From Burkholderiales bacterium (lineage in GTDB: Bacteria > Pseudomonadota > Gammaproteobacteria > Burkholderiales > SG8-39), in the NCBI GenBank assembly GCA_036496555.1, contig DASXKY010000066.1, positions 5,834 through 69,833 of the forward strand: a DNA stretch of 64,000 bases. The letters are read 5' to 3'. The translations under genes were made by a program, and so were the position numbers. Positions within the stretch are counted from its first letter, which is position 1. Every line of letters begins with the position of its first letter. This document shows positions 15,001 to 59,183 of the stretch, piece after piece. The notes below the pieces were generated by a model. The model ran no database searches. It was not told the origin of the DNA and saw nothing but the letters and a program-made list of their open reading frames with translations.

Positions 15001-17368
15001 CGGTCTGGTGCTGGATCGACGTGGTGTAGGTTCCCTGCGAGCAGGTGCCGTCCGGTGCCGCGGCGGGTGCGAAGGTGGTGTTGCTCGTGGTCGTGGTACC
15101 CGGCGAGCCGCCGCCGACGGTAACGTTCTGGGTGGTGACGGTGGTGCGGTCCATGACGCGATGCTGCGTAATACCGCAGCCGCAGGCCGTGTCGCCGCCG
15201 CCGGCGAAGTTCGTCTGCAGGTTGCCCTCGCAGACCACCTGCTTATCCTGCGTGGTCGGCGTGCTGGTCGTCGTGGAGGAGGCTGCGGCGCCGTCAAAGG
15301 TCCCGGTCGAGGTGCGGTCGACCGCCACCGTCGTGTAAGGCGTATCGGTTTGCGGGTTGACGCTGTCGGTGGTTCCGATCGCATTCCCGTTCAGGTCCTG
15401 CGGACCGTTTCCGTTCCAGTAGCCGTCGGTGGTCAGCAGCGTGAAATGGCGCTGACACGAGGCGATGACCGGATCGTCCGCAGTCGGAATGCCGTCAGTG
15501 AGGCCGGTATTAAGCTTGCCGGCGTAGATCCAACCCGCCCGCGAGAGCGCCTCGCGCAGCGGCGTGCTCTGGTCCGGAATCTGCGCGTAGAACTTCGTGA
15601 ACCAGTTGTCGGCCTGATTGCCCGAGCCGCCGCGGAAGGTGTCGATCTTCAGGTACTTCGAGCTCTGCACGGTGCCGTGGTCGCTGGAGCCCGAGGCGTT
15701 GTTGTAGGTCGGGTTGATCGTGATGAAGCCGACGCGCAGCTTGTCGTTCGCCGACCCGGTCGAGATGAGCGGGAGGAAAGCGCGGCCCGCGGTCGTCTTC
15801 ATCATCTGCATCCGCGTGCGGTAATAGGTGAACCAGCGCGCATAGTTCTGGATTTCTTCGGCGTACGTACAGTCGGGCGCGGTGCCGCTGGTCGTGCAAT
15901 CCGCGCGGTTTGGCCGGTTCTTGAACGGCGCGGCGCCACTGATGATGTTCTCTTTCGCGAACCAGCCGTAGCGCCCGAATTTCCAGGACGGGCTGGCGCC
16001 GTAGCCGATGTACTTGCTGCGGCAGCGCGGCGTGCCGGAGGCGTCGCCGATGGCGTCGGGCGCCAGCGCCTGTTCCGCCGTCTGGCAGAAGCGCAAGTAC
16101 GCCGGGAAGGTGAAGCCGCTCGGCGGCGTGTTGCCCGGCAGCACCTGAGCGCAGTTGGTGAGGTTCGCGTCGCTGCAGTATTCCACCGGCGTGATCGTGT
16201 ACGCGATCGCCGCGCCATTCACCGTGCCGCGCTGGTTGTACAGGCCGGTTCGCACCCAGTGGCCGGTGGTATTGCGCGCCGTACTACTAGTGGTGTTGAA
16301 CGTAAAGTGGTCTGCGTCGAGTACGGTAATCGGAACGTTGGTTAGATTCAGCGTGCTGTCGCCCGCCGCATTGCCGGTAGTCGTAATGACATCACCGGTC
16401 TGAAGCCCGTGCGCCGTGGTTGTCACGCGGGTCAGTGAGGTAGGCAAACCGACAAAGGTCAGGAGGGTGTCCCTTACGAACGTCACGGCGTTGTAGCACT
16501 TGCGGAAGGAGCCGAGCGTCGAGCCGATGGTGCCCGACGAGCCGGCAGTATAGGTAAAGGTGCTGGCCGTAACGCTGTTGATGGCCACGCAAACGGCGTC
16601 GAAGTTGTTGTTGGTCGAATCGACCCATATGCGATCCGACGTCGTTAGGCCATGGGGCGCGAGCGTGGTCGCGGTCACAGTAGAGCCGCTGCGCGCGAAC
16701 TGGCCCATCGCCATCATCTCTGGCAGGCCGAAGATCGCGGTGCTGGAGTTGGTGAGGTGCGTGCGATACGGGAACTGGCCGGCGTTCGGGATGGTATTGC
16801 CTTGCCCGTCCTTGCCGTTCGCGGCTGTCAGCGTCGTATTGTCGCCGGTCGCGCCGTTACGCTTGCAGACGCTGTTGCTGTTGCAGAACTTGTTGTCCTG
16901 GATCGACGCAGTGATGTCGATGGTGCTCGTGCTTTGCGCCTGGAAGGCGTCGACCGGAACCGAAGTCACGCTGAGCGGAGAGGCGGAGACCGTGGTGCCG
17001 TCAGCCTTGAGCGCCGGCTTGTAGAACACGCGCGGGTCGTAGGCCACGCCGTTGGTACCGAACGCGCCGCCCGTGTACCAGATCGGATCGCCAGCCTGAC
17101 AGTCGTTGCTGCCGCCGGAGCGGGTCATGCACTGGTTGTTGCCGCTGTCCTCGTTGTTGAGGTAGTCGGGCAGGTAGTCCCAGTCCATGCTGCCCGAGCC
17201 GTCGAGGGTGAACAGCAGATTCGGCAGCACGGAGGCGCCGCCGCCGGCGGTGGCGAGCGGCGTGTTAGAGATCGTGACGTTGCCCGCGAAGGCCGGCTGC
17301 ATGGCGATCGAGCTCGCGAGCAGCCAGGCGAGGCTTCGGTAGAGGACGAGTTTCAGGTTCTTTTTCAT
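12035..17368 (-). CDS. pilY1: Type IV pilus tip-associated adhesin PilY1 (1777 aa, vWA-like N-region plus C-terminal beta-propeller)
   Basis: ATG 17368 with GGGAG upstream and signal peptide MKKNLKLVLYRSLAWLLASSIAMQPAFA. MIDAS-like LLFTLDGSGSMDWD. PilY1 propeller signature RVYVGANDGYLHAFDGVTGAESWAYVP and YAGDQLGNVWRLDV. Last gene of the minor-pilin operon. Confidence 0.9.
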   Translation of the reverse strand: MKKNLKLVLYRSLAWLLASSIAMQPAFAGNVTISNTPLATAGGGASVLPNLLFTLDGSGSMDWDYLPDYLNNEDSGNNQCMTRSGGSNDCQAGDPIWYTGGAFGTNGVAYDPRVFYKPALKADGTTVSASPLSVTSVPVDAFQAQSTSTIDITASIQDNKFCNSNSVCKRNGATGDNTTLTAANGKDGQGNTIPNAGQFPYRTHLTNSSTAIFGLPEMMAMGQFARSGSTVTATTLAPHGLTTSDRIWVDSTNNNFDAVCVAINSVTASTFTYTAGSSGTIGSTLGSFRKCYNAVTFVRDTLLTFVGLPTSLTRVTTTAHGLQTGDVITTTGNAAGDSTLNLTNVPITVLDADHFTFNTTSSTARNTTGHWVRTGLYNQRGTVNGAAIAYTITPVEYCSDANLTNCAQVLPGNTPPSGFTFPAYLRFCQTAEQALAPDAIGDASGTPRCRSKYIGYGASPSWKFGRYGWFAKENIISGAAPFKNRPNRADCTTSGTAPDCTYAEEIQNYARWFTYYRTRMQMMKTTAGRAFLPLISTGSANDKLRVGFITINPTYNNASGSSDHGTVQSSKYLKIDTFRGGSGNQADNWFTKFYAQIPDQSTPLREALSRAGWIYAGKLNTGLTDGIPTADDPVIASCQRHFTLLTTDGYWNGNGPQDLNGNAIGTTDSVNPQTDTPYTTVAVDRTSTGTFDGAAASSTTTSTPTTQDKQVVCEGNLQTNFAGGGDTACGCGITQHRVMDRTTVTTQNVTVGGGSPGTTTTSNTTFAPAAAPDGTCSQGTYTTSIQHQTVKQSIVCDRRNNNNNPVSFPNGGTASCNNCATSSSGARYVLIRQTATQDKTTTTVDGFQTDLSTAFTNVASSTYEYSKDGGSNWTTTVPASSSACSTSNNGASGPTPTNNGSPVAGASGSGTSLALISPNPSAPVVGTPLVNVAVAGGYDDTLADVAMYYYRSDLRGGKDTKGNSTGPALNAAGVDVSANNVPVTSGSKNYAAHQAMVTFTVGLADGNLRYQSDYDSSTTGDFANIKSGTPNACFWSSGACNWPEPIHDTPAALDDLWHAAVNGRGQFYLATNVDALASGIQNTLTALGSQFAAASASATSSPNVTQTDNQIFSTTYETNTWAGRVFAQTIDPATGNVDPTIQWQGDQLLLGRVTATTDTRTILTFDPAGTNKVKSFTFASLNSTEQAFFTHKCDTNIGSTLYPVALLSQCTSVTGAQQTTINAGTTLVDFLRGQTGNESSPGSTSPLYRDRTVIDPATGAVTQTIMGDTISAKPNYVRAPIFDYGGTYSSFITAQASRAPRVYVGANDGYLHAFDGVTGAESWAYVPRFLMPMMSVLADRTYSTTHTYFVEGSPEVNDVFDATASAWKTVLVGGAAGGGRGYYALDVTDPASPKVLWEWCADANQCDPTTADVDIGLTYGNPVFGKRAYDGRWVVVFTSGLNNNLTIGGSTGSGKGTFWVVDAITGALLNKVSTGVGTVTTPSGLMKQAPYYTNGGKIDATFQYIYAGDQLGNVWRLDVGLPPVLPATVTTPAPVVITKITTLKDASGRAQPITSRPIPSIIGTDYVLFIGTGRYLGTPDLSDQGAGASSWQQSYYAFKDKAYSAGVQGSLRTDTALVQRTFTQVSPTERGISNSPVVTMNWNTNDGWFIDFNPVFSGIQDSPGEGINLVDPRLINGTVFATTNVPANTAGGAVCAVGGSSFQYQFDFRSGLPISTSPNGAVGWANQKTITVGVAVVQLPNGAIKAITTGADTTKTTSSVNTNASGTIVKRFSYRVR

Positions 17369-17394
17369 GATGTGCTCCCTTTGCAGCGCGCTTT

Positions 17395-18042
17395 TTATTG
17401 GAGGCGGATATGCGTCTGCACGATGGTGACCGAATTGCGCGGTCCGACGGACCGCGCGGTGACGCGGTAATGGATCGAGGGCGGCTTGGTGAAGAAGTTG
17501 GGCTGGCTCATGTCGAGGCCTTCGCCGCTGAGGACGGCCGCGTCGGGCGTCGACAGGCACAGGTTGGTCGCGCTGTTGCACGTCGCGTTCGGCGCACAGG
17601 TGAGGCCGGACTGGCTGCACAGGCGCTCGACGATGTAGGAGACGGTGTTGCCCGAGGCGTCGGCCAGGCCTCCATTGATTGCGGCCGCGTTGGCCCAGGT
17701 GCCGGAGCTGCTGAAATCCTTGTCCCGGCCCAGCACATCCACGCTGGCCCAGTAGCCGGTGCTGGAAACGCCCGCCACGTTGTGGTCGAGGTAGAGCTGA
17801 GTCTGATCCGCGACGGACTGAGTCGCGAGGTAAGCCTGGCCTGCCTGGATGCCCTGGTCTGCGCCGTTCATCGCCGACTCTTTGAACGCAATGTTGCCGG
17901 CGACGAGCGCGCTGGTATCCACCGAACGCATGGTGGCAATGCCGGCGAGCGACATGGCGACCAGCACGATGAGGGCGATGATCAGCGTCGCACCGGTCTG
18001 GCGGCGCGGATGATACGCGTGGCGCGAGGGCGAATGGGTCAT
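17395..18042 (-). CDS. pilX: Type IV pilus minor pilin PilX
   Basis: Start at MTHSPSRHAYHPRRQTGATLIIALIVLVAMSLAG (PilX_N-like, no Glu5). ATG 18042 lies 2 nt after the pilW stop. Confidence 0.8.
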   Translation of the reverse strand: MTHSPSRHAYHPRRQTGATLIIALIVLVAMSLAGIATMRSVDTSALVAGNIAFKESAMNGADQGIQAGQAYLATQSVADQTQLYLDHNVAGVSSTGYWASVDVLGRDKDFSSSGTWANAAAINGGLADASGNTVSYIVERLCSQSGLTCAPNATCNSATNLCLSTPDAAVLSGEGLDMSQPNFFTKPPSIHYRVTARSVGPRNSVTIVQTHIRLQ

Positions 18043-37119: not shown

Positions 37120-39616
37120 GCGTCGCCCACAGCTCGCGCACCGCTGCGGCGGGCGCGGCGGCGGCTGCGGGCGGCACGCGCGCGTAGCGGGCGCCATTCA
37201 GGCGCAGCGCGTGCTGCAGCCGCCGAAACTCGCGGTAGGCCTCGCGGCAGCGCTCGGCGAGCGCAGGCGGGATCAGACCGAGTTCCGCTGCCATGCCGAG
37301 CAGCGCGATGTTTCCAAGATTCTTTGTCAAAGAAGAAAATTCATCGGCGTGGCCGAGCACGAGGTACTGGATCGCGAACTCGATGTCGATCATGCCGCCG
37401 CGGTCGTGCTTGACGTCGAACAGGTCCGACTTGTTCGGATGCGCGGCGTGCATCTTTTCGCGCATCGCGAGGATTTCCCTAGCCAGATCGGATCGGTCGC
37501 GCGTTCTTTTCAATATTCTTTCGCGAATCGCCTCGAACTTCTCTCCCACCTTCGCGTCGCCGGCGCAGTAGCGCGCGCGGGTGAGCGCCTGGTGCTCCCA
37601 CACCCACGCGTCCTTCTCCTGATAGCGCTCGAAGGCTTCGACGGAGGACACCATCAGGCCTGATGCGCCGCTCGGCCGCAGCCGCAGATCGGTGTCGAAG
37701 AGCACGCCGGCCGAGGTGTGCGCGGTGAGCCAGTGGTTCATGCGCTGGGCGAGGCGCGCATAGGCCTCCGGCGCGCGCTCGTCGGCGTCGTCGTAAAGGA
37801 AAATGATGTCGAGGTCGGAGGCGTAGCCGAGCTCCTTGCCGCCGAGCTTGCCGTAGGCGATGACCGCGAACGCCGGTTCTTCGCGGTGGCGGACGCGCAG
37901 ATCCTGCCACACCACGCGCAGGACCTCGCCGAGCACGAGATCGGCCAGCGCCGACAGGTGGTCGGCGAGCCGCTCGACGGTGAGCAGCCCTGTGAGGTCC
38001 TGCGCGAGCAGGCGGAACACTTGCGCCTGGTGCAGCTCGCGCAGATCGTTCATCTGCCGCTCGGTGTCGCCAGCATGAGCTGCAAGCTGATTTTGTAGAT
38101 TCTTAGAGAAAAAACTTAAATCTATCGGCGCATACAGCACTCTGTCGTCGAGCAGCTCGTCGAGCAGCAGCGGATGGCGCGTGACGAAGGCCGCCGCCCA
38201 GCTCGAAGCGCCAATGATGCGTGCGACGCGCGCGAGGGCCGCCGGGTTCTCGGCGAGCAGCGCGAGGTAGGCGGCGCGGCTCGCCACGGCCTCGAGCAGG
38301 TCGGCGCCGCGCGCGATGGTCTCCTGCGGATCGGGCGTCGCCGCCGCGGCGCGCGCGAGCGCCGGCACCACCGCGTCGAGGCGCCGCCGCGAGTCCTCCG
38401 GCAGCGCGGCATAGCGCTGGCTCGCACGCAGCGCGGAGAGGCGCGGGTGCTCGGGCCAGGGCTCGACCGCCGCCTGCCTCTCCTCGGCGAACACCGCCTG
38501 GAAATGGCGGGTCACCGCGGCGCGATGGGTTTGCAGTTTTTCAGAGAACGAGAGCCATGACGGGAAGCCACACATCGCGGCGAGCAGATCGCAGTCCTCG
38601 CCTTCGGCCGGCAGCTCGTGGCGCTGCGCGTCGTCGAGGTACTGCAGGCGGTGCTCGACGTTCCTCAGGAAGACGTAGGCTTCACTCAGTTCCTGCGCGG
38701 CTTTTTCCGGCAGGAGATGCTTTTGTGAAAGCAAAGACAACACCGTGAGGGTCGGCTTCACGGTGAGCTCGGCATCGCGCCCGCCGCGGACGAGCTGCAG
38801 CGCCTGCGCGATGAACTCGATCTCGCGGATGCCGCCCGGACCGAGCTTGACGTTGCCGGCGAGTTCGCGCCGCTCCACTTCGCGGCGCACTTCGGCGTGC
38901 AGGCGGCGCATCGCCGTCAGCGTCGCGTAGTCGAGGTACTTGCGGAACACGAACGGCCGCACCGTGCGCTCGAGCGCCTCGCCGAGCGCACCGGTGAGCG
39001 GGCGCGCCTTGATCCAGGCGTAGCGCTCCCATTCGCGGCCCTGCGTGACGAAGTAGTGCTCGAGGAACTCGAGGTTGCAGGCGAGCGGGCCCGCATCGCC
39101 GTAGGGGCGCAGCCGCATGTCGACGCGGAACGCGAAGCCGTCGCCGGTGGTCTCAGACAGGAGCCGGATCAGCGCTCGGCCGGCGCGCTCGTAGCGCTCG
39201 CCGGCGTCCGCCTCGCCCGGATGCACGAACACGAGGTCGATGTCGGACGAAACGTTGAGCTCGCGGCCGCCGAGCTTGCCCATGCCGATCACGGCGAGCT
39301 CCTCGCAGCGCGCGAAGCGCAGGCAGGCGGCGATCGAGCACTCGGCGAGGTCGCTCATCGTGCCGCACACCTCGTCGAGGCTTGCGCGGCCCGTCAGGTC
39401 GCGCGCCATCACGCGCAGCAGCACGCGCTGGCGCAGGCGCCGCAGGCGAGCCTGCAGCGCGGCGAAGTCGTCCGCGTCGGCGCCGGCGAGCGCGGCGGCC
39501 ATCTCGGCGCGAGCGAACGGCGGCGCCGACGCGCCGGCTTCGGCCGCGAGCTCCGGACGCGCCGCGAGCAGTCGCCGCGCATAGCGCGAGCGGGTTATTT
39601 CCTCAATCGGATCCAA
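37100..39616 (-). CDS. glnE: Bifunctional glutamine synthetase adenylyltransferase / adenylyl-removing enzyme
   Basis: Two nucleotidyltransferase halves (GMGKLGGRELNVSSDIDLVFV and YGKLGGKELGYASDLDIIFLY). 838 aa. The 3' end overlaps the convergent permease-family gene by 20 nt. Confidence 0.9.
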   Translation of the reverse strand: MDPIEEITRSRYARRLLAARPELAAEAGASAPPFARAEMAAALAGADADDFAALQARLRRLRQRVLLRVMARDLTGRASLDEVCGTMSDLAECSIAACLRFARCEELAVIGMGKLGGRELNVSSDIDLVFVHPGEADAGERYERAGRALIRLLSETTGDGFAFRVDMRLRPYGDAGPLACNLEFLEHYFVTQGREWERYAWIKARPLTGALGEALERTVRPFVFRKYLDYATLTAMRRLHAEVRREVERRELAGNVKLGPGGIREIEFIAQALQLVRGGRDAELTVKPTLTVLSLLSQKHLLPEKAAQELSEAYVFLRNVEHRLQYLDDAQRHELPAEGEDCDLLAAMCGFPSWLSFSEKLQTHRAAVTRHFQAVFAEERQAAVEPWPEHPRLSALRASQRYAALPEDSRRRLDAVVPALARAAAATPDPQETIARGADLLEAVASRAAYLALLAENPAALARVARIIGASSWAAAFVTRHPLLLDELLDDRVLYAPIDLSFFSKNLQNQLAAHAGDTERQMNDLRELHQAQVFRLLAQDLTGLLTVERLADHLSALADLVLGEVLRVVWQDLRVRHREEPAFAVIAYGKLGGKELGYASDLDIIFLYDDADERAPEAYARLAQRMNHWLTAHTSAGVLFDTDLRLRPSGASGLMVSSVEAFERYQEKDAWVWEHQALTRARYCAGDAKVGEKFEAIRERILKRTRDRSDLAREILAMREKMHAAHPNKSDLFDVKHDRGGMIDIEFAIQYLVLGHADEFSSLTKNLGNIALLGMAAELGLIPPALAERCREAYREFRRLQHALRLNGARYARVPPAAAAAPAAAVRELWATLIEPTT

Positions 39617-39666
39617 GGTCTACGGTTAAAATGAATCGCGCGTGGGTGTCAAACGTTAATTCCACC

Positions 39667-42600
39667 ATGAAGTGGCTCTGGCGAGCGATAGAGGTTCTCG
39701 CCTGGACGGCGCTTTTCGCGTTCGCCAGCCTGGTGCTCGCGCTGCGCTTCTGGGTGCTTCCCAACGTCGAACGGTACCGCGCCGAGATCGTTTCGGCGGT
39801 GGCGGGCGCACTCGGCCGGCCGGTAAAGATCGGCGCCATCGACGCCGGCTGGGACGGCCTGCGGCCGCAGATCGGCTTCAGCGACGTGCGCATCTTCGAC
39901 GGCGAGGGCCGCGAGGCGCTGGTGCTGCCGCGGGTGGAGAGCGTGGTGGCGTGGAATTCGCTCCTGCACGGCGACCTGCGCCTGTTCTCGCTCGCCGTCG
40001 AGGCGCCGCGGCTGGTCGTGCGGCGCGACCAGGAAGGGCGCTTCTACGTTGCCGGCCTGAGGCTCGGCGAGCACTCGGGCCAGGGTCGCGGCAGCGACTG
40101 GATCCTCGCGCAGCACGAGATCCTGGTGCACGGCGCGGAGATCGAATGGCGCGACGAGCTGCGCGGCGCGCCGCCGCTCGTTCTGCGCAGCCTGACGCTG
40201 CGCGTGCGCAATACGGACGACGAGCACGCGGTGGGCGTCACCGCGCAGCCTCCGCCCGAGCTCGCCGCGACCCTCGAGCTGCGCGCGACGCTCGGCGGGC
40301 ACACGCTGAACGACCTCACCGCCTGGAACGGGCGCATTTACGCCGAGGTCGGCTATACCGATCTCGCCGCGTGGCGTCCATGGTTCGACTATCCGATCAA
40401 CATCCGTGAGGGGCAAGGCGCGCTGCGCGTTTGGGCGTCGCTGCGCAACGGCACGGTGACCGAGGGCACCGCCGACCTTGCGCTCGCCGGCGTGCGCGCG
40501 AGCCTCGGCGACGAGCTCGACCCGCTCGAGCTGGTCTCGCTGCAAGGCCGCGTGCACGGACGCGCGCTCGCCGACGGCGTCGAACTGTCCGGCCGCGGTC
40601 TTGCGCTCGTCATGGAGCGAGGGCGGTCGATCCCGCCGACCGATTTCGAGATCGTCTGGCGGCCGCAGGCGGGCGGCGCGCTGGCGGCGAGCCTGATCGA
40701 CCTCGAGGCGACGGCGGGCATCGTCGAGGCGCTGCCGGTGCCGCCGCAGCTCGCGGGCATCCTGCGCGAGCTGCAGCCGCGCGGGCGGCTCGTCGACTCG
40801 CGCCTGGAGTGGACCGGCCCGTTCGACGCGCCCAGGCGCCTCTCGGCGCGCAGCCGCTTCAGCGACCTCGCCCTGCGCCCGACCGGCGTGATCCCCGGCT
40901 TCAGCGGGCTCGACGGCAGCGTCGAGGCGACCGAGGCGAAAGGCACGCTTACGCTCAACACGCGCAAGGGCGAGTTCGAGCTGCCGAAGGTGTTTACCGA
41001 GCCGCGCCTGTTTCTCGAGACGCTGAACGGCCGCCTCGAATGGCAGCGCCAGGGCGGCGCCCTGATAGTGCAGTCGCCCGCGCTCACCTTCGCCAACGCC
41101 GACCTGAGCGGCACGGTGAACGGCTCCTATACGTACACCGGCGAAGGGCCGGGCAGCTCGGACCTGTCGGTGCTGCTCAGCCGCGTCGACGGCCGCCAGG
41201 TGGGCCGCTACCTGCCCCTCGGCACGATCATGGGACCGGGCACACACGACTGGATCGTGCGCTCGGTGCTCGACGGGCAGGGCAGCGACGTGCGGCTGCG
41301 TCTGCGCGGCGACTTGCGCCAGTTTCCCTTCAACGACCCGGCGAGCGGCGAGTTCCGCATCTCCGCGCGCGTCGAGCGCGGGGTGCTGCGCTACGCCGAG
41401 GGCTGGCCGGAGATCCGCGACATCGACGCCGACCTGCTGTTCGAGAGAAAGCGCATGGAGGTCGCCGCCCGCGGCGGCACGGTCCTCGGGGCGCGCCTGG
41501 GCAACGTGCGCGCGAGCGTCGCCGAGCTCGGCCGCAACGCGCACCTCGTCATCTCGGGCCAGGCGAGCGGCCCGACCGCCTCGTTCCTCAAGTACCTGCA
41601 GGAGAGCCCGCTGTCGCAGCGGCTGCACGGCTTCACCGACAGCATGACCGTGCACGGCGACGGCCGGCTGCTGCTGCGGCTCGACCTCGCGCTCGCGGAC
41701 ATGGAAAAGACGCAGGTTCAGGGCGACTACGAGTTCTCGTCGAACGACATCGTGCTGCACCCGGCGATCCCGCCGATCGAGCGCGCCGCGGGCAAGCTCG
41801 GCTTTACCGAGTCGACGCTATCGGCGAACAACGTGCGCGGCCGCCTGGCCGGCGGCGCAGTGCACGTCGAAGGCGGGCCGAAGCCCGACGGCGGCCTCGA
41901 GTTCGTCGCGCGCGGCGACGCGCGCGGCGACGCGCTGCCGCTCGACGAGCCGTTCCACGGCCGGTTGTCGGGCATTCTGCGCTACACGGCACGCGTCGCG
42001 CTGAGCGAGGGGCAGGCGCGCTTCACGATCGACTCCCCGCTCGTCGGCCTGGCGAGCGCGCTGCCGGCGCCGTTCACGAAGAGCGCCGCCGCCTCGCTGC
42101 CGCTGCACGTCGAGATCCATCCGGGGGGCGAAAGCGGCCGCGACCGCATCTCGGCGACGCTCGGCCGGCTTGCCGCAGCCGAGATCCTGCGCCGGCGGCA
42201 GGGCAACGAGATGGTGGTGCAGCGCGCCGCGCTGTGGATGTCGCCCGCGCCGGGGCAGCCGATCCGGCTGCCCGAGCGGCCCGGCATGCTGGTCTACGGC
42301 ACGCTGCCGTCCCTCGACCTCGACCGCTGGCTCGCGCTGCCCGGCGGCCGCGGCGGCGGCAGCGCCTCGATTGACGTGCGCATCGGCACGCTCGACGCGC
42401 TCGGCAAGCGCTTCAACAAGGTGGCGGTGCGCGCCGGCGCCGACGCCGCCGGCTGGTCGGCGAGCGTGGGCGCGGAGGAGGCGGCGGGCGAGCTCTCGTA
42501 TCGCAACGCGGGCGGCGGCCGACTTACCGCGCGGCTCGAGCGCCTGAGCGTGCCGCAGGATTCGCCCGGCACGCGGCCGCAGGCGGGCGCGGTGCAACAG

Positions 42601-43431
42601 AACCTGCCGGCGCTCGACTTCGTCGCCGAGCAGTTCTCGTTCGGCGACAAGCCGCTCGGCCGCGTCGAGATCCAGGCGCAGCGCGCCGGCGCCGACTGGC
42701 GCGTCGACAAGCTGGCGATGCAGAACCCCGACGCCTCGCTCACCGCCAAGGGCCTCTGGCGCCGGGGCGTCGCCCAGAACACCACGGTCGACTTCGACCT
42801 GCAGGCGGCCGACGCGGGCAAGTTCCTCGGCCGCGTCGGCAGCCCCGGCCTGCTGCGCGGCGGCCGCGTGCACCTGCAAGGCATGCTGACCTGGAACGGC
42901 GAGCCGACCGCGATCGACTACCCGAGCCTGTCGGGCGACATGCAGATGCAGGCCGAAGACGGCCAGTTCCTCGAGGTCGATCCCGGCCTCGGCAAGCTGA
43001 TCTCGCTCATGAACCTGCAGGCGCTGCCGCGCCGCGTCGCGCTCGACTTCCGCGACGTGTTCTCGAAAGGCTTCCAGTTCGACCGCATCACCTCGAGCAG
43101 CCATGTCGAGCGCGGGGTCATGGCGATCCACGACTTCCGCATGCGCGGCTCGGCGGCGCAGGTCGAGATGTCGGGCAGCGTCGACGTCGCGCGCGAGACA
43201 CAGGACCTGAAAGTGCGCATCATCCCCAGTCTTGGCGACACCGCCGCGGCGGTGCTCGCCTTCGTCAACCCGCTGCTGCTCTTTCCTGCGGCGCTGGCGC
43301 AGCGCATCTTGAAAGATCCGCTCGGGCACATATTTTCCTTTGAGTACGCCGTGACCGGCACCTGGTCCGACCCGACGGTGAAACGCACCAACGTCGACGT
43401 GCGCACGGTGACGCCGAACGATTCCAGATAG
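39667..43431 (+). CDS. yhdP: YhdP-family (AsmA-like, DUF3971) large envelope protein
   Basis: N-terminal [34 protein letters not shown]. About 1250 aa with the conserved C-terminal block [15 protein letters not shown]...GTWSDP. Alternative ATG at 39631. Confidence 0.8.
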
Positions 43432-51570: not shown

Positions 51571-52451
<881 letters not shown>

Positions 52452-54472
52452 TCCGCCTTCCGCTCGCCGCCGCGCTGCCGTACGCGGCGACGATCTTCCT
52501 TTCGTCGTTCCTGCTGTTCCTGGTGCAGCCGGTGATCGCCAAGCAGATCCTGCCCTGGTTCGGCGGCTCAGCGGGCGTCTGGACTACCTGCATGGTGTTC
52601 TTCCAGACCCTCCTGCTGGCGGGCTACGGCTACGCCGACCTGACGATGCGCCTCGGCGCGCGCCGCCAGGCGATGCTGCATGTCGCGCTGCTCGGCGCGT
52701 CGCTGCTGTTCCTGCCGATCCTCGCCTCGAGCGGCTGGAAGCCGCAGGGCGACGAGGAGCCGATCGGCCGCATCCTGCTGCTGCTGCTCGCTACCATCGG
52801 GCTGCCGTACTTCCTGCTCTCCAGCACCACGCCGCTGCTGCAGGCCTGGTACTACCGGCGCTGGCACGCCGCCGTGCCGTATCGCCTGTTCGCGCTTTCC
52901 AACTTCGCCTCGCTGCTCGCGCTGCTCGGCTTTCCGCTGATCTTCGAGCCGGCGTTCGACCTGAATACGCTCGGCTGGGCATGGTCGTTCCTGTATGCCG
53001 GGTTCGTCGTCCTGTGCGGCACCGTCGCGCTGATGTCGGGGAACGGGGCCGCGGTTTCTCAAAAGAAGAACGTTTCCGAGAAACCAAAAGGCAAGCAGCA
53101 GATGCTCTGGCTCGCGCTCTCCGCCATGGGCTCGGTGATGCTGCTCGCGGTCACCAACCACATCACGCAGAACATCGCGAGCGTGCCGTTCCTGTGGGTG
53201 CTGCCGCTGGCGCTGTACCTGATCACCTTCATCCTCGCCTTCGACCATCCGCGCTGGTACCTGCGGCCCGCGTTCCTCGCCGCGCTGGTGGTCCTGCTGC
53301 CGCTGATGGCGTGGTACGTGCCCTCGCTCGACCTGAAGATCGCCGTGCCGCTTTATCTCGCCGGCATGTTCGTCGCGTGCATGGTGTGCCACGGCGAGCT
53401 GTCGCGGCTGCGGCCGGACCCGGCGCACCTGACGCGCTTCTTCCTGATGATCTCGGTCGGCGGCGCGCTCGGCGCCGTGCTGGTGGCGATCGTGGCGCCG
53501 CTCGCGCTGCCGGGCTACTTCGAGCTCGGCATCGCACTGGTGGCGCTCGCCGCGGTCCTCAGCGTCAGCCTGAAGAAGCTGTTCCGCCTCGTCGCAGTCG
53601 CCACCACCGTGGCGACTGCGTTCTTCGTGGTGCGCGGTGCGCAGGACTACACGAGGGGCGTGCGCGTCATGGAGCGCGATTTCTACGGCGTCGTGCGCAC
53701 GGTCGACTTCTACGAGCCGGTCGCCTACCGCTCGATGTACCACGGGCCCATCATGCACGGCGGCCAGCTGCTCGGTTACTCGTTCCGCAACACGCCCGCC
53801 GACTACTTCAGCCCCGGCTCGGGCTACGGCCGCGTGTTCCGCTCCATCCGCGCGGTGCACGCGAAGAAGGGGCTCAACGTCGGCGTGATCGGCCTCGGCG
53901 CGGGCGTCATCGGCGCCTGGATGCGGCCGGGCGACACGCTGGTGTTCTACGAGATCAGCCCGCGCGTGGTCGACATCGCCAAGCGCGAGTTCACCTACCT
54001 GCACGACACGCCGGCGCGTACCGAGGTGGTGATGGGCGACGGCCGCCTGTCGCTCGAGCGCGAGCCGCCGCGCGGCTACGACGTGCTCGGCATCGACGCC
54101 TTCTCCGGCGACTCGATCCCGATGCACCTCATCACGCGCGAGGCGATGGCGATCTACGTCAGGCACCTCAAGCCCGACGGCGTGATCGTGTTCCAGGCCA
54201 CCAACCGCTTCATCGACCTGCTGCCGGTGGTGAAGCGCCTCGCCGCCGAGTTCGGCATGGAGGCAGTCAACGTCTCCGACTCGCCCTCCGGCGAAGAGGG
54301 TCCGGAGTACTGGTACTCCGCCACCGACCAGGTCATAGTCACGCGCAACAAGAAGCTGCTCGCCGCGCCCCTCATCGCCGACGGCGCCGACGCGATCGAG
54401 GACCGGCAGGACCTGCCGATCTTCACGGATTCGCATCACAATCTGCTCAGGATCCTGAAGTAGAATTTTCCG

Positions 54473-55291
54473 GTGGAGCTGAAGCTCAAGCAGGTGGACG
54501 TCTTCACCGACCGCCCTTTCCTCGGTAATCCCGTCGCCGTGGTCTTCGGCGGCGAGGCACTCGATACCGCGGCCATGCTGCGCATCGCGAACTGGACCAA
54601 TCTCTCCGAGACTACCTTCCTCCTGCCGTCAAAGGCCGCCGACTACAAGCTGCGCATCTTCACGCCCCGGCTCGAGCTGCCCTTCGCCGGCCACCCAACT
54701 ATCGGCAGCGCCTACGCCGCGATCGAGTCCGGCTTCGCCAAGCCGGTGGACGGCAAGCTGCAGCAGGAATGCCGCGCCGGGATCGTGGACCTGAAGGTGG
54801 AGGCGGGCGGCCGCATCTTCCTCAAGTCCCCCGAGGCAAAGATCGCCGACGTGCGCGGCAAGCTGCCGTTCGCGAAGAAGCTCCTGCGCGTCGACGTCGG
54901 CCCGGTCTGGATCGTCGGCGAGGCGGAGAGCGCCGAGGCGCTCGCGGCGCTGAAACCCGACCAGGCCGCGATCGCCCAGTTCACCACCGACCTCGAGGCG
55001 ACCGGGGTCACCGTCTTCGCCGAGTCGAAGGACGGCGAATCGAAGATCCACGTGCGCACCTTCGCCCCGCTGTTCGGCATTCCCGAGGATCCGGTGTGCG
55101 GCAGCTGCAACATCAGCGTCGCCGCCTACCTGAAGGCGACCAACCAGGTCGACCGTTTCGGCTATCACTACACCGCCCGCCAGGGCATGCAGATGGGTCG
55201 CGACGGCCGCGTCTACGTCCGCATCGACATCGACGGCATCCGCATCGGCGGCGACGCGGTGACCTGCGTGGAAGGAACCTTAAGAACCTGA
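54473..55291 (+). CDS. PhzF-family isomerase-like protein
   Basis: GTG 54473. VDVFTDRPFLGNPVAVV...NLSETTFLLP...FTPRLELPFAGHPTIGS. Confidence 0.8.
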   Translation: MELKLKQVDVFTDRPFLGNPVAVVFGGEALDTAAMLRIANWTNLSETTFLLPSKAADYKLRIFTPRLELPFAGHPTIGSAYAAIESGFAKPVDGKLQQECRAGIVDLKVEAGGRIFLKSPEAKIADVRGKLPFAKKLLRVDVGPVWIVGEAESAEALAALKPDQAAIAQFTTDLEATGVTVFAESKDGESKIHVRTFAPLFGIPEDPVCGSCNISVAAYLKATNQVDRFGYHYTARQGMQMGRDGRVYVRIDIDGIRIGGDAVTCVEGTLRT

Positions 55292-58066
55292 GTCGGGTTC
55301 GCCGCAGCGTTTCAGAATTTCGGCGCGCACCTCGTCGCGCAGCTTCACCACCGCGTTCCAGTCGCTCCCCGCGGGCTGCACCGGCGGCGCGAGGTTCACC
55401 GTCACCGGGCTGCGGCGCAGGAACCACGTGCCTTCGCGCAGCACGGAGCGCGCGCCGCGGATCGCCGCCGGCGCTACCGGCGCGCCGGCCTGCGCTGCGG
55501 CCTGGAATCCGCCGGCGCGGAACGGCATCAGGCCGGCCTGGCGCTGGAAGGTGCCCTCCGGGAAGACGATCAGCGACACGCCGCGCTTCACCGCCGCGGT
55601 CAGCTCGTCGACATGCTCGACGCTCTTCTGCACATCGAAGCGCTCGACGAACTCGGCGCCGAGGCCGGCGACGATTACACGCGTGACCAGGTTTGCCTTC
55701 AGCTCGCGCTTGGCGACGAAAGCGAAGGGTCGCCCGGCGAGCGCCGCCAGCAGCGCCACCCCGTCGAGGTAGCTGGTGTGGTTGACGGCGAGCACGCAGG
55801 GAGCGGCAGGCAGGTTCTCCAGCCCGCGCGCCACGAACGGGATGCGCGCAAGGCGGAAGAAAAGCCGGGCGCACTTGCCCGTGACGCGCCACGCGGGCGC
55901 GCCCGGGATGATCCAGCAAGACAGGAATACGAGCGGAAACAGCATGCCGATCACCGCCCAGGCCCGCGCGGCGAAGAGCAGGCCGCGCGCGGTGCGCCAG
56001 CCGCGCCGCAGTTGGGGGCCGACGCCGGCCAGCCCCAGGTGCACGAACTGCAGCCACACTGCCCGCGGCTTCACCGCCCGCGGCCCGCGCTCGTAGTACT
56101 CGCGCGCCGCGACGCGCCGGATCTTGCCGCTCGAGGTCTTCGGCACCGTGGCCGGCGGCGCGAGCACGATGTCGTCGGCCGGCCCGGCGATCAGGCTTAC
56201 GGCGAGGGCGCTGATCTTCTTCTTGAGCTCCTGGTGCAGCGCCGGATCCTGCTCGCGCGTCTCAGCGAGCACCACCACCCGCTCGGTACCGCTCGCGCGG
56301 TCCATCGAGCCGAACACCGCGACGCAGCCGCGGCGGATGCCAGGAAGGTCGCCGACCGCCTCCTCGAGCTCGTAGGGGCTGATGTTGCGGCCGCCGCGGA
56401 TGATGATGTCCTTCTCGCGGCCGGTGATGTACAGCATGCCGTCGGCGAGGTAGGCGCGGTCGCCGCTGTTCAGCCAGCCGCCGCCGGCGAAGAGCGCCTT
56501 GGTCGCTTCGGGGTTGTGGTAGTAGCCGGTGGTCGCCGAGGGGCCGCGGAACTGCAGCGCACCCTCGTAGCGGTCGGGCAGCTCGAGCCCGGCGCCGTCG
56601 ACCACGCGCACGTCGTGCGCGGCAATCGGATGGCCGCAGCCCACCACCCTGAGCGGCGAAGGATCGCCCGGCGCCGCGTCGACCGCCTCGCCGCTCGCGC
56701 TGAAGGTGTCGCGGTCGAGCGTGTCGACGCGCCATGGCTCGCCCATCGGGGTGAAGGCGAGGCCGACCGAGCACTCCGCCAGGCCGTAGCAGGGGTTCAT
56801 GGCGGTCTGCGGAAACCCGTGACGCGAGAATCGATCGCCGAAGGCGGTCATCGTCTCCGGGCTCACCGGCTCGGCGCCGTTGAAGGCGAAGCGCCAGCTG
56901 GAGAGGTCGATGCCTTCCATTTCTTTTTCTTCTGTTCTTCTGATGCATAACTCATAAGAAAAATTCGGCCCGCCGGAGATCGTGCCGCGGTGGCGGTGGA
57001 TCGCGCGCAGCCACGAGCTCGGCCGCGAGAGGAAAGCGAGCGGCGACATCAGCACCACCGGGAAGCCGAGGAACATCGTAGCGAAGCAGCCGCCGATCAG
57101 GCCCATGTCGTGGTAGAGCGGCAACCAGCTCACGAACACATCGGCGGGCCCGGCGTTCACCGCCTTGCCCATCGCCTGCACGTTGGCGAGCAGGTTCTCG
57201 TGCGTGAGCACGACGCCCTTCGGGTTGCCGGTGCTGCCCGAGGTGTACTGCAGGAAGCCGATGTGCCCGCCGCGCCCCTTCACGGGGCTAAAGCTTGAAT
57301 TCGAATTCGATTCGAAGTCACTTGGTGTCAGAACGGATCTGAGAGATTCGACCTGAGCACGAAGCAGGTAAGCGAGCGGCTTCGCCTCGGCAACGGTGAT
57401 CATGATCGTCGCGCCGGCGCTCTTCAGGATGCCGACGTGGCGCGTCATGTGATCTTCGATGGTGGTGAGGCGCGCAGGCGGGTAGAGCGGCACCGGCACC
57501 CCGCCGGCGAGCAGCGTGCCGTAGAAGGAGAACAGATATTCCTTCGAGGTCGGCAGCATGATCGCCACCATCTGCCCCGGCTGCAGGCCCTCTTCCGCGA
57601 GCCGCGCTGCGTACGCCAGCGAGCCGTCGTAGAGCGCCTGGTATGTGATCGGCGTCTCTTTCTTCTCCTCGTAGAGGAATACCGTCAGGCGATCGGGCTG
57701 CTTTTCGACGTGGTATTCGAGCGCCTCGGTAAGCGTCTGCGCATGAACCGGCGGCCGCACGCCCTCTGACTGCACCAGGCTCGCCACGCTGCGGTCGGCG
57801 GCGTGCGGCGCTTGGCCGGCGCCGGCGAGGAGGAAGCGCAGCAGATCGCGCGGCGTCTCGGCGGTGGCGAGCGCCTGCTCCGGCAGGCTCACGCCGAACT
57901 CGCGCTCGAGGCGCAGCACCACCTCGACGCGCGCCAGGCTGTCGAGGCCGAGGTCGCGCTCGAGCGAGCTGTCGAGCGCGACGTAGGCGTCGACGTTAGG
58001 GCGCGCCTCGCGCGCGACTTGCTGCACGAGCGCGAGCATGCGATTCGCGTCGACTGGGGAATCCAT
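55280..58066 (-). CDS. Tri-domain protein: acyl-carrier domain + fatty-acyl-AMP ligase-like adenylation domain + 2 TM + PlsC-type acyltransferase
   Basis: ATG 58066 (MDSPVDANRML). Carrier motif DLGLDSLARVEVV. Adenylation motifs LQYTSGSTGNPKGVVLTH, YGLAE, GWLNSGDRAY and SSGKIRR. Acyltransferase motifs NHTSYLDG and VFPEGT. Confidence 0.8.
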   Translation of the reverse strand: MDSPVDANRMLALVQQVAREARPNVDAYVALDSSLERDLGLDSLARVEVVLRLEREFGVSLPEQALATAETPRDLLRFLLAGAGQAPHAADRSVASLVQSEGVRPPVHAQTLTEALEYHVEKQPDRLTVFLYEEKKETPITYQALYDGSLAYAARLAEEGLQPGQMVAIMLPTSKEYLFSFYGTLLAGGVPVPLYPPARLTTIEDHMTRHVGILKSAGATIMITVAEAKPLAYLLRAQVESLRSVLTPSDFESNSNSSFSPVKGRGGHIGFLQYTSGSTGNPKGVVLTHENLLANVQAMGKAVNAGPADVFVSWLPLYHDMGLIGGCFATMFLGFPVVLMSPLAFLSRPSSWLRAIHRHRGTISGGPNFSYELCIRRTEEKEMEGIDLSSWRFAFNGAEPVSPETMTAFGDRFSRHGFPQTAMNPCYGLAECSVGLAFTPMGEPWRVDTLDRDTFSASGEAVDAAPGDPSPLRVVGCGHPIAAHDVRVVDGAGLELPDRYEGALQFRGPSATTGYYHNPEATKALFAGGGWLNSGDRAYLADGMLYITGREKDIIIRGGRNISPYELEEAVGDLPGIRRGCVAVFGSMDRASGTERVVVLAETREQDPALHQELKKKISALAVSLIAGPADDIVLAPPATVPKTSSGKIRRVAAREYYERGPRAVKPRAVWLQFVHLGLAGVGPQLRRGWRTARGLLFAARAWAVIGMLFPLVFLSCWIIPGAPAWRVTGKCARLFFRLARIPFVARGLENLPAAPCVLAVNHTSYLDGVALLAALAGRPFAFVAKRELKANLVTRVIVAGLGAEFVERFDVQKSVEHVDELTAAVKRGVSLIVFPEGTFQRQAGLMPFRAGGFQAAAQAGAPVAPAAIRGARSVLREGTWFLRRSPVTVNLAPPVQPAGSDWNAVVKLRDEVRAEILKRCGEPDSGS

Positions 58067-58074
58067 GGCGTCGG

Positions 58075-58088
58075 CGAGTGTACACTCG
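58075..58088. promoter_or_regulatory. 14-bp perfect palindrome CGAGTGTACACTCG in a 43-bp divergent spacer
   Basis: Read directly from the sequence, between ATG 58066 (minus strand) and ATG 58110 (plus strand). Confidence 0.4.
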
Positions 58089-58109
58089 GGTTCCAAGGGG
58101 GGATTCGAA

Positions 58110-59183
58110 ATGAGAATGAGCCTGCCGGCCAGCGCGCTGCTCGCGTTTTCCTTTTCCGCCGCGGCGGCCGACACCGGCGCGCTATGGGAGATCACCTCAC
58201 AGATGAACATGCCGGGCATGCCGGCCGGCATGGGCGCGCGCACCAACCGCGTCTGCCAGGGCGACGATCCCGAGCGGCAGCAGGGCAAGGAGCGCTCGGA
58301 CTGCAAAGTCACCGACAAGAAGACGACGGCCACGCGCACCCAGCTCACGCTGGTGTGCAAGGACGGCGGCACGATGACCATCGACCAGACCTACAACGCC
58401 GCGCGCACCGAGTTCAAGGGTGTGATGGCCATGAAGTCGAGCAAGGGCGACGTCACCATCAACACCACCGGTCGCAAAGTGGGCACCTGCGACGCGGTCG
58501 CGGAGCGCAAGGCGCGCGACGCCAAGATGGACGACATGAAGAAGCAGGTCGTAGCGGGCCAGGCGGCGGCCGCCGCGTCGATGAAGGATGCGAATGACCG
58601 GCAGATCAAGCAGTGCTCCGAGGCGCTGGAGAAGATGGACTGGCACGGCTTCGGCATGTATGCCACCTGCTACAAGAAGCAGGGCGACAAGAACTGCGCC
58701 TTCATGGACGCGCAGGCCAAGAACCAGCCGGGAGCGACCAAGGCCTGCAACGCCGGCCTGGGCGAGTTCTGCAAGCGCTTCCAGGGCGCCGAGGGCTTCA
58801 TGCGGACGAAGAACAGGGAGGACGCGGCGAAGATGTGCGGCGTCACCATCGATTCGATCAAGACCGCGCAGTGCCCGCGCGTGGCGAAGACGCAGTCGCC
58901 ACTCTCCTTCCTCGGCGGCTATTGCCCGGTCGAAGCGAAGCCGATCGCGCAGGAGAACTGCACCGGCCGCGACTACACCTCGAAGATGGGCGGCAAGTAC
59001 GCCGCGTTCTGCCAGCACTACCTCGCGAATGCCGATTTCGACAAGCCGCGCGGCGGCTCGGGATCCGCGGCCGCGGCAACCGTGCCGGCGCAGGACAAGA
59101 CGGCGGGGCAGAAATCCGCCGACGCGGTCAAGGAGGGCGTCAGCCAAGGGGTGAACAAGCTGAAAGGACTGTTCGGCCGGTAG
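58110..59183 (+). CDS. Secreted DUF3617-like protein with Cys-rich C-terminal extension
   Basis: Signal peptide MRMSLPASALLAFSFSAAAA. GALWEITSQMNMPGMPAG...RVC is DUF3617-like. The C-terminal ~200 aa contain more than 10 Cys. Confidence 0.6.
   Translation: MRMSLPASALLAFSFSAAAADTGALWEITSQMNMPGMPAGMGARTNRVCQGDDPERQQGKERSDCKVTDKKTTATRTQLTLVCKDGGTMTIDQTYNAARTEFKGVMAMKSSKGDVTINTTGRKVGTCDAVAERKARDAKMDDMKKQVVAGQAAAAASMKDANDRQIKQCSEALEKMDWHGFGMYATCYKKQGDKNCAFMDAQAKNQPGATKACNAGLGEFCKRFQGAEGFMRTKNREDAAKMCGVTIDSIKTAQCPRVAKTQSPLSFLGGYCPVEAKPIAQENCTGRDYTSKMGGKYAAFCQHYLANADFDKPRGGSGSAAAATVPAQDKTAGQKSADAVKEGVSQGVNKLKGLFGR

Follow-up and report, generated by a model that had tools for sequence, protein, structure and literature searches.

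A carrier-FAAL-acyltransferase fusion protein of a Burkholderiales bacterium as a candidate for the Aas-like transfer of free fatty acids to membrane lipids

The stretch of DNA analysed here (64,000 nucleotides, referred to as the window) comes from a Burkholderiales bacterium (assembly GCA_036496555.1, contig DASXKY010000066.1, positions 5,834 to 69,833) and carries on its minus strand a gene for a 928-residue protein that joins an acyl carrier protein (ACP)-like domain, a fatty acyl-AMP ligase (FAAL) and an acyltransferase resembling 1-acylglycerol-3-phosphate O-acyltransferase (AGPAT) and PlsC. The preferred reading, with a rough probability of 0.55, is that this tri-domain protein acts as a relay in which a fatty acid is activated, loaded onto the protein's own carrier and passed to a lysophospholipid-type acceptor, all on one polypeptide. 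A preliminary description of the gene had suggested such activation, tethering and transfer, and the idea is supported by the domain identities, the FAAL hallmarks and the invariance of the catalytic and cargo residues. The features of the gene and its product are listed below.

55280-58066, minus strand: tri-domain ACP-FAAL-acyltransferase gene, 928 aa, stop codon at 55280-55282 (list of open reading frames (ORFs) and homologue-supported start).
57821-58048, minus strand: carrier (ACP-like) domain, residues 7-82, a four-helix bundle (Pfam PP-binding, NCBIfam ACP families, AlphaFold2 (AF2) model).
57938-57940, minus strand: codon of Ser43, the predicted 4'-phosphopantetheine site, in GLDSL (alignment and AF2 model).
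57734-57820, minus strand: linker of 29 residues (83-111) between the carrier and the FAAL domain, unstructured (no secondary structure and a per-residue model confidence, pLDDT, of 65-69 in the AF2 model).
56084-57733, minus strand: FAAL domain, residues 112-661 (NCBIfam, PDB, Foldseek, motifs).
57023-57046, minus strand: FAAL-specific helix segment SPLAFLSR, residues 341-348, aligned to TQDFAMR (T252-R258) of the E. coli FAAL (EcFAAL).
56639-56743, minus strand: FAAL-specific insertion, residues 442-476, gap-free against EcFAAL.
55850-56062, minus strand: membrane-anchor region, residues 669-739 (hydropathy, hydrophobic moment, family profile, AF2 helices).
55304-55840, minus strand: AGPAT/PlsC-like acyltransferase domain, residues 743-921 (Pfam, NCBIfam, PDB).
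55763-55780, minus strand: catalytic HX4D motif, H763-D768 (HTSYLD) (alignment).
55550-55564, minus strand: motif III FPEGT, residues 835-839, followed by Phe and not by the Arg of PlsC.

The single 928-aa ORF of the preliminary description was upheld by the ORF list and by the alignment of its start with homologues. The N-termini of fourteen homologues (73-84 % identity) fall no more than a few residues from the Met encoded by the ATG at 58066, and an NCBI entry, 'MAG TPA: AMP-binding protein [Burkholderiales bacterium]', is identical to the 928-aa protein. A longer reading of the ORF from 58381 (1033 aa) was excluded by the N-termini of the homologues and by its overlap with the divergent DUF3617 gene. 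The motifs quoted in that description were all located as given: LGLDSLARVEVV at residues 39-50, LQYTSGSTGNPKGVVLTH at 272-289, SSGKIRR at 645-651, NHTSYLDG at 762-769 and FPEGT at 835-839.

Conservation was assessed in an alignment of 134 homologues sharing 38-84 % identity, which was also used for structure prediction; a model based on a shallow alignment of 14 sequences reached a pLDDT of only 52 and was discarded. The full-length AF2 model (pLDDT 89.7, predicted template modelling score (pTM) 0.81) has a carrier of four helices joined by a flexible linker to a FAAL fold, followed by a helical anchor and an acyltransferase core. Residues Ser43, K648, H763/D768 and E837/G838 are invariant in the alignment, and all three domains are supported by hidden Markov model (HMM), PDB and structure-prediction evidence.

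The adenylation (A) domain had been described as of FAAL/FadD type, and the comparisons place it on the FAAL side. Pfam AMP-binding matches residues 117-516 (E 1.3e-67), and the top NCBIfam family is PRK09192 (fatty acyl-AMP ligase) at 430 bits, the cut-off of 600 not being reached. The best PDB matches are the E. coli FAAL 3pbk (E 8.5e-88) and the Legionella FAAL 3kxw, and Foldseek superimposed the modelled domain on 3pbk with a TM score of 0.92 and an rmsd of 2.6 Å. Motifs A3, A5, A7 and A8 and the A10 lysine K648 do not vary among the aligned sequences. The feature that separates FAALs from fatty acyl-CoA ligases, an insertion following motif A5, is present: the alignment with EcFAAL has no gap over residues 442-476, which are missing from E. 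coli FadD (gaps of 9 and 18 residues) and from Aas (gaps of 21 and 8). FadD also has a 6-residue gap where the FAAL-specific helix 341-348 is situated. In EcFAAL the T252-R258 helix lies at the entrance to the canonical CoA pocket, which is blocked by the bulky residues W224, M231 and F279 (PMC8460268); their counterparts here are W314 and F369, both invariant, and M321, conserved in at least 90 % of sequences.

Judged by these sequence hallmarks, the A domain is a true FAAL. Such features mean rejection of CoA and dependence on holo-ACP (PMC8460268), and since the insertion, the helix and the bulky pocket residues are all present, the domain should, by the published criteria, form acyl-AMP, refuse CoA and need a pantetheinylated carrier. 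The role of the built-in carrier as the acyl acceptor is strengthened by this result.

An N-terminal carrier with a DSL phosphopantetheine site had been proposed, and several lines of evidence agree with it. Pfam PP-binding matches residues 14-79 (E 3.8e-11, 43.5 bits against a cutoff of 20.8), and the region also matches ACP families in NCBIfam. In the AF2 model the carrier is a bundle of four helices (7-21, 43-57, 63-68 and 72-82), and the conserved Ser of the DSL motif, Ser43 (Ser in 134 of 134 family members), occupies its canonical place in the first turn of helix II. Ser43 would accordingly be the residue converted to the holo form by phosphopantetheinylation; no phosphopantetheinyl transferase gene was found within the window. 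The linker that follows (residues 83-111, …DRSVASLVQSEGVRPP…) is near-invariant among relatives of 72-84 % identity and unconserved in the wider family, and it may be a lineage-specific docking element.

The C-terminal part was described as a lysophospholipid acyltransferase (LPLAT) domain on the strength of NHTSYLDG and FPEGT, which agrees with the matches to PF01553, TIGR00530 and 5kym and with the invariance of the motifs. Pfam Acyltransferase (PF01553) covers residues 747-869 (E 4.7e-23, 81.9 bits against a cutoff of 23). The best profile, TIGR00530 (generic 1-acylglycerol-3-phosphate O-acyltransferase), gives E 1.3e-22 and 79.9 bits against a cut-off of 102.95, and the PlsC equivalog PRK15018 scores 40.9 bits against 501. 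Weaker NCBIfam matches, all far below their cut-offs, were obtained with Aas-type (9.5e-14, 50 bits), E. coli-type PlsC (1.8e-10) and OlsA (approximately 1e-9, 38 bits) models. The sole PDB sequence match of the domain is PlsC of T. maritima (5kym, E 6.3e-17); identity reaches 28 % over 181 residues with Aas's transferase domain and 31 % with the C-terminal half of E. coli PlsC.

All four LPLAT/AGPAT motifs are present (I NHTSYLD, II FVER, III FPEGT, IV APVAP), with N762, H763, S765, D768, E837 and G838 each found in 134 of 134 sequences and K786 and R809 also invariant. The position after EGT departs from PlsC, which has EGTR: residue 840 (55547-55549) is Phe in 117 sequences, Leu in 13 and Met in 2, so that 132 of the 134 do not have the PlsC-type Arg, and R842 is found in 115. 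In PlsC the Arg of motif III touches the phosphate of the acceptor; acyltransferases whose substrates are head-group-bearing lysolipids typically lack it. The EGT-F motif may therefore bear on acceptor choice and gives a weak hint of head-group-bearing lysolipids rather than lysophosphatidic acid (LPA).

Between the FAAL and acyltransferase domains, two transmembrane helices had been proposed. The hydrophobic stretches exist, at residues 669-686 and 696-720, but it is doubtful that both cross the membrane, given the flanking Arg/Lys residues and a position corresponding to that of the PlsC anchor. Helix 669-686 is hydrophobic in this protein, and the family has an invariant Gln there and Lys or Arg at position 676 in 90 % of sequences. 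The second stretch is a 25-residue uncharged, aromatic-rich hydrophobic core with Gly707 and Pro711 mid-way, flanked by Arg/Lys throughout the family (RR at 687-688 and basic positions 722, 725, 730 and 734). It is followed by a basic amphipathic helix, 723-739, with a hydrophobic moment of 0.61. The AF2 model places helices 670-680, 682-719 and 723-739 directly ahead of the catalytic core, and the region lies where the first ~62 residues of T. maritima PlsC (1-62), situated ahead of the aligned core, would fall.

The PlsC structure of Robertson et al. from 2017 reportedly shows a monotopic two-helix anchor. An anchor of this kind, with all domains cytoplasmic, is at least as likely for the tri-domain protein as two transmembrane helices and is preferred here, because it keeps every domain in the cytoplasm, whereas a single pass would part the carrier from the acyltransferase. 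A two-pass hairpin is disfavoured because the loop RRGWRTARG would be periplasmic, against the positive-inside rule. The basic flanks on both sides of the core are compatible with all domains being cytoplasmic.

The relay would operate on the cytoplasmic side of the inner membrane, where a free fatty acid would be attached to a membrane lipid. The FAAL domain would use ATP to convert the fatty acid to a long-chain acyl-adenylate, and the acyl group would then be loaded on the phosphopantetheine arm of Ser43 in the protein's own carrier, CoA not being usable. The carrier, on its flexible 29-residue linker, would swing to the membrane-held AGPAT-like domain, whose HX4D dyad would O-acylate a hydroxyl of a membrane lipid, most likely a lysophospholipid of the inner leaflet. 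The analysis shows which domains are present, their FAAL hallmarks, the conservation of the catalytic and cargo residues and the stand-alone position of the gene; conversion of Ser43 to the holo form, loading in cis, this type of acceptor and this topology are inferred. The net reaction would be Aas-like: fatty acid, ATP and lysolipid would give a diacyl lipid without a soluble ACP or CoA pool. E. coli Aas carries out the same two-step chemistry through acyl-ACP, with holo-ACP supplied non-covalently (PMC11416262).

Several observations weigh against the relay. The acyltransferase scores under the curated cut-off of every named NCBIfam model. FAALs normally have the ACP downstream, and an N-terminal carrier is unusual for them (PMC11837247). 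The modelled 38-residue helix 682-719 could span the bilayer once, which would leave the acyltransferase in the periplasm, beyond the reach of the carrier. Unlike aas, the gene has no lplT-like transporter nearby: the absence of an adjacent lplT-like flippase gene, stated in the preliminary description, holds for the window and for about 90 related loci. Finally, literature searches found survey mentions only and no assay, knock-out or product for any member of the family.

Alternatives to the relay concern mainly the acceptor. If this were glycerol-3-phosphate or LPA, exogenous fatty acid would enter de novo phosphatidic acid in a bypass of PlsB/PlsC instead of serving lysolipid repair. The ranking of TIGR00530 first among the profiles points in this direction, as do PlsC of T. 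maritima as the only PDB match and the AGPAT-type motifs NHxSxxD, AKxEL, FVER and a VPVxP-like motif IV. Such an acceptor is nevertheless considered unlikely, since the domain stays below the cut-offs of TIGR00530 and, by a wide distance (41 against 501 bits), of the PlsC equivalog, and since motif III reads EGT-F family-wide and not EGTR, the Arg of which is said to bind the acceptor phosphate; R842, three residues on, might stand in for the lost Arg. It is also improbable that the enzyme makes a specialised lipid, with the acceptor not a glycerophospholipid but, for example, a lyso-aminolipid, a hydroxy-fatty-acyl lipid or an ether-lipid precursor like that of the ElbD pathway, and with the FAAL selecting a fatty acid of an unusual kind. 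FAALs do typically send fatty acids to specialised lipids (PMC8460268, PMC11837247), models of OlsA-type lyso-ornithine-lipid acyltransferases match weakly, motif III is atypical, and in Myxococcus ether lipids are made with ElbD, which unites adenylation, ACP and AGPAT-like domains. However, the AGPAT and Aas-type profiles outscore those for OlsA, Pfam finds no reductase domain in the protein, and neither olsB, elbB/elbE, AGPS, a reductase nor another lipid-pathway gene is conserved alongside in the lineages examined. The gene is moreover spread across many phyla, looks single-copy and stands in a housekeeping context.

The remaining alternative dispenses with the relay: the loaded carrier would deliver its acyl group to some other enzyme, or the acyltransferase would draw on acyl-ACP or acyl-CoA of the cell, and the fusion would serve membrane co-localisation only. 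In its favour, E. coli Aas is said, in the literature of the Rock laboratory, to release acyl-ACP under some in vitro conditions. This explanation is nonetheless thought very improbable in view of the strictly conserved three-domain order, the three active or cargo sites that stay invariant in 134 diverse sequences, the absence of a conserved partner gene and the confident, compact model.

The preliminary description called for a survey of the architecture across genomes. In a HMMER scan of 1.84 billion 50 %-identity cluster representatives, 17,769 proteins reached E<=1e-30, mostly just adenylating enzymes, and the complete carrier-FAAL-acyltransferase order was found in 112 of the best 150 representatives (34-52 % identity). 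The members listed by a profile search are named from Gamma-, Alpha- and Deltaproteobacteria, Thermodesulfobacteriota (including the cultured Desulforhabdus amnigena), Campylobacterota and Nitrospinota; the architecture is widespread across phyla. Close relatives occur in 241 species genomes, the 80 loci listed coming nearly all from metagenome-assembled genomes (MAGs) of uncultured Burkholderiales/Betaproteobacteria. Full-length homologues of 42-48 % identity are carried on chromids or plasmids by Cupriavidus spp., Paraburkholderia phymatum, P. caribensis, P. aromaticivorans, a Burkholderia sp., Sinorhizobium sojae, Methylobacterium nodulans ORS 2060 and a Photobacterium; Cupriavidus, Paraburkholderia and Methylobacterium are among the cultured carriers.

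An apparent variant, ACP-FAAL with an unknown C-terminal domain of about 250 aa, was rejected, its Arg/Ala/Gly/Pro-rich tails being frameshifted calls of high-GC genes. Tails of this type are seen in P0212, P0215, P0219, P0220, P0224, P0229 and P0253; P0225 has kept an acyltransferase-like tail without the HX4D histidine (CRSGPED). Ten loci (L003, L013, L019, L020, L028, L039, L042, L051, L060 and L067) share about 70-76 % identity and the same high-GC betaproteobacterial synteny and come from MAGs with odd labels, such as 'uncultured Enterobacteriaceae', 'Clostridia bacterium' and 'Bordetella parapertussis', which look like binning or taxonomy errors.

The gene is chromosomal and not foreign in composition, since the window has a G+C content of 62-73 % throughout and contains housekeeping genes, including those for IleRS, GlnE, YhdP and TldD and sucCD. 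The neighbours were found as the preliminary description had them, a convergent PhzF-like gene with a 12-nt overlap and a divergent gene for a DUF3617 secreted protein; a further ORF lies beyond PhzF.

54473-55291, plus strand: PhzF-family gene, convergent with the tri-domain gene and overlapping it by 12 nt.
58038-59183, plus strand: DUF3617 ORF as listed, divergent; the listed start would overlap the start codon of the tri-domain gene.
52385-54463, plus strand: 692-aa protein, multi-helix and hydrophobic in its N-terminal half and spermidine-synthase-like in its C-terminal half, neighbour beyond PhzF.

The true start of the DUF3617 gene is likely the Met at about 58110, ahead of the signal-peptide-like MRMSLPASALLAFSFSAAAA, which would give a divergent intergenic gap of approximately 45 bp. 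No sigma-70-like promoter match was found in this gap, and the promoter and terminator scan gave nothing above chance. The 692-aa protein has no Pfam match at E 1e-3; in 20 of 80 related loci such a spermidine-synthase-like protein is again encoded close to the tri-domain gene. Farther away, a full-length protein of the YhdP family (intermembrane phospholipid transport, E 3e-272) is encoded at 39382-43431 on the plus strand, 12 kb from the tri-domain gene, and a PilY1-domain protein of 1861 aa lies more distant still, at 12035-17620 on the minus strand.

In the 80 close loci the downstream side often contains sucCD, with or without the spermidine-synthase-like membrane protein and PhzF, and the upstream side is variable. 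No neighbour recurs across seven distant lineages. A conserved neighbourhood was dismissed as a clue to function, there being only local synteny in close relatives and nothing that recurs farther out. A protein that works without a dedicated partner would be expected to show no conserved neighbours in distant lineages, and the context fits an enzyme of this sort that handles free long-chain fatty acids. A suggestive tie to free long-chain fatty acids comes from three Burkholderiaceae replicons, in which an orthologue of fadD (47 % identical to E. coli FadD) is located directly upstream on the same strand; such an upstream fadD was found neither in the window nor in the 80 loci of close relatives.

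L087:5206-6981, Cupriavidus sp. USMAHM13: upstream fadD, overlapping the tri-domain gene by 17 nt.
L089:5173-6831, Paraburkholderia aromaticivorans: upstream fadD.
L090:7182-8840, Burkholderia sp. JP2-270: upstream fadD.

The Cupriavidus locus (L087:1-15168) has genes for FtsH, a universal stress protein and a phosphoribosyltransferase around the homologue, which is followed by acsA, genes for pyruvate dehydrogenase-like E1alpha, E1beta and E2 and a separate ACP. A distantly related homologue from a metagenome (L093:10414-14823) is followed by FtsH, ribonucleotide reductase and phosphoribosyltransferase. The surroundings of both resemble low-oxygen or stress islands. A link to the low-oxygen (lxa) locus of Burkholderia was set aside as a weak lead only, since the lxa gene table of B. 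cenocepacia lists no such enzyme.

The preliminary description left room for the architecture having been characterised already. Patil et al. (eLife 2021) stated that fusions with lysophospholipid acyltransferases occur in a few of the FAAL-like domains of bacteria, as recruitments independent of polyketide synthases (PKS) and nonribosomal peptide synthetases (NRPS) (PMC8460268), and a 2026 survey in Protein Sci also mentions FAAL-LPLAT fusions; a 2025 review of FAALs does not discuss a fusion of FAAL with acyltransferase (PMC11837247). The architecture is thus known to exist, with the fusion mentioned in two surveys, and is functionally uncharacterised, no biochemical characterisation having been found in the literature.

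In the widest, tentative and rather unlikely interpretation, the family would provide a widespread route, independent of CoA and soluble ACP, by which free fatty acids enter the membrane lipids of Gram-negative bacteria. The chain would never leave the polypeptide and would be insulated from type II fatty acid synthesis (FASII) and from beta-oxidation, possibly for membrane maintenance under stress or low growth or for an undescribed lipid. 

Three bacterial routes for exogenous fatty acid are known: FadD with acyl-CoA, Aas or AasS with acyl-ACP and FakAB with acyl-phosphate. A carrier-tethered FAAL-acyltransferase would be a fourth design, found in thousands of environmental proteobacteria and in some cultured ones, and a clear example of the use of a FAAL in primary membrane-lipid metabolism instead of polyketide or lipopeptide synthesis. 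The carrier specificity of FAALs and donor recognition by LPLATs could both be probed on a single polypeptide, bypass routes of this kind bear on how the efficacy of FASII-directed antibiotics is judged, and a use in the engineering of lipid composition is possible. The general logic would not surprise a lipid biochemist; the family is abundant, mechanistically tidy and present in cultured carriers.

By profile and alignment evidence the protein belongs to the FAAL, carrier-protein and PF01553 superfamilies, and its parts can be compared with characterised systems. It shares with T. maritima PlsC (5kym) motifs I-IV and a helical segment of about 60 residues before the catalytic core; PlsC differs in being a stand-alone enzyme that uses soluble acyl-ACP and has EGTR where the tri-domain family has EGTF. 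The known FAALs (3pbk, 3kxw, FadD32 and the olefin-synthase FAAL) are 33 % identical to the ligase domain, collinear with it through the insertion and the helix, and have the pocket-blocking residues. They feed PKS/NRPS, with the ACP downstream or in trans (PMC8460268, PMC11837247), whereas in the tri-domain protein the ACP is N-terminal, the downstream partner is a glycerolipid-type acyltransferase and no PKS/NRPS is nearby.

ElbD of Myxococcus xanthus, compared by its description, likewise unites in a single protein of membrane-lipid synthesis an adenylation, an ACP and an AGPAT-like domain, and homologues of ElbD without the reductase domain exist in other phyla. Its order is reductase, A domain, ACP and acyltransferase, it was purified as a soluble protein and it is encoded in the elbA-E operon. 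The tri-domain protein has no reductase match in Pfam, begins with its carrier, contains a membrane anchor and is neighboured by PhzF and DUF3617 instead of elb genes.

The closest functional parallel is E. coli Aas, which also unites an adenylate-forming activator of fatty acids with a PF01553 acyltransferase in one polypeptide, uses acyl-carrier thioester chemistry and is associated with the cytoplasmic side of the membrane. The reversed order and the built-in carrier noticed at the outset were confirmed by the Pfam domain order: Aas has the transferase before the synthetase and draws on free holo-ACP, whereas the tri-domain protein runs from a fused carrier through ligase and anchor to transferase. 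The ligase of Aas does not have the FAAL insertion, the two ligase domains are 23 % identical, and aas is followed by lplT, which the tri-domain gene is not. The Aas models PRK08043 (32.6 bits against 886) and PRK08633 (169 against 1221) are far from being reached. By analogy, the tri-domain protein most likely works like Aas while standing outside the Aas family.

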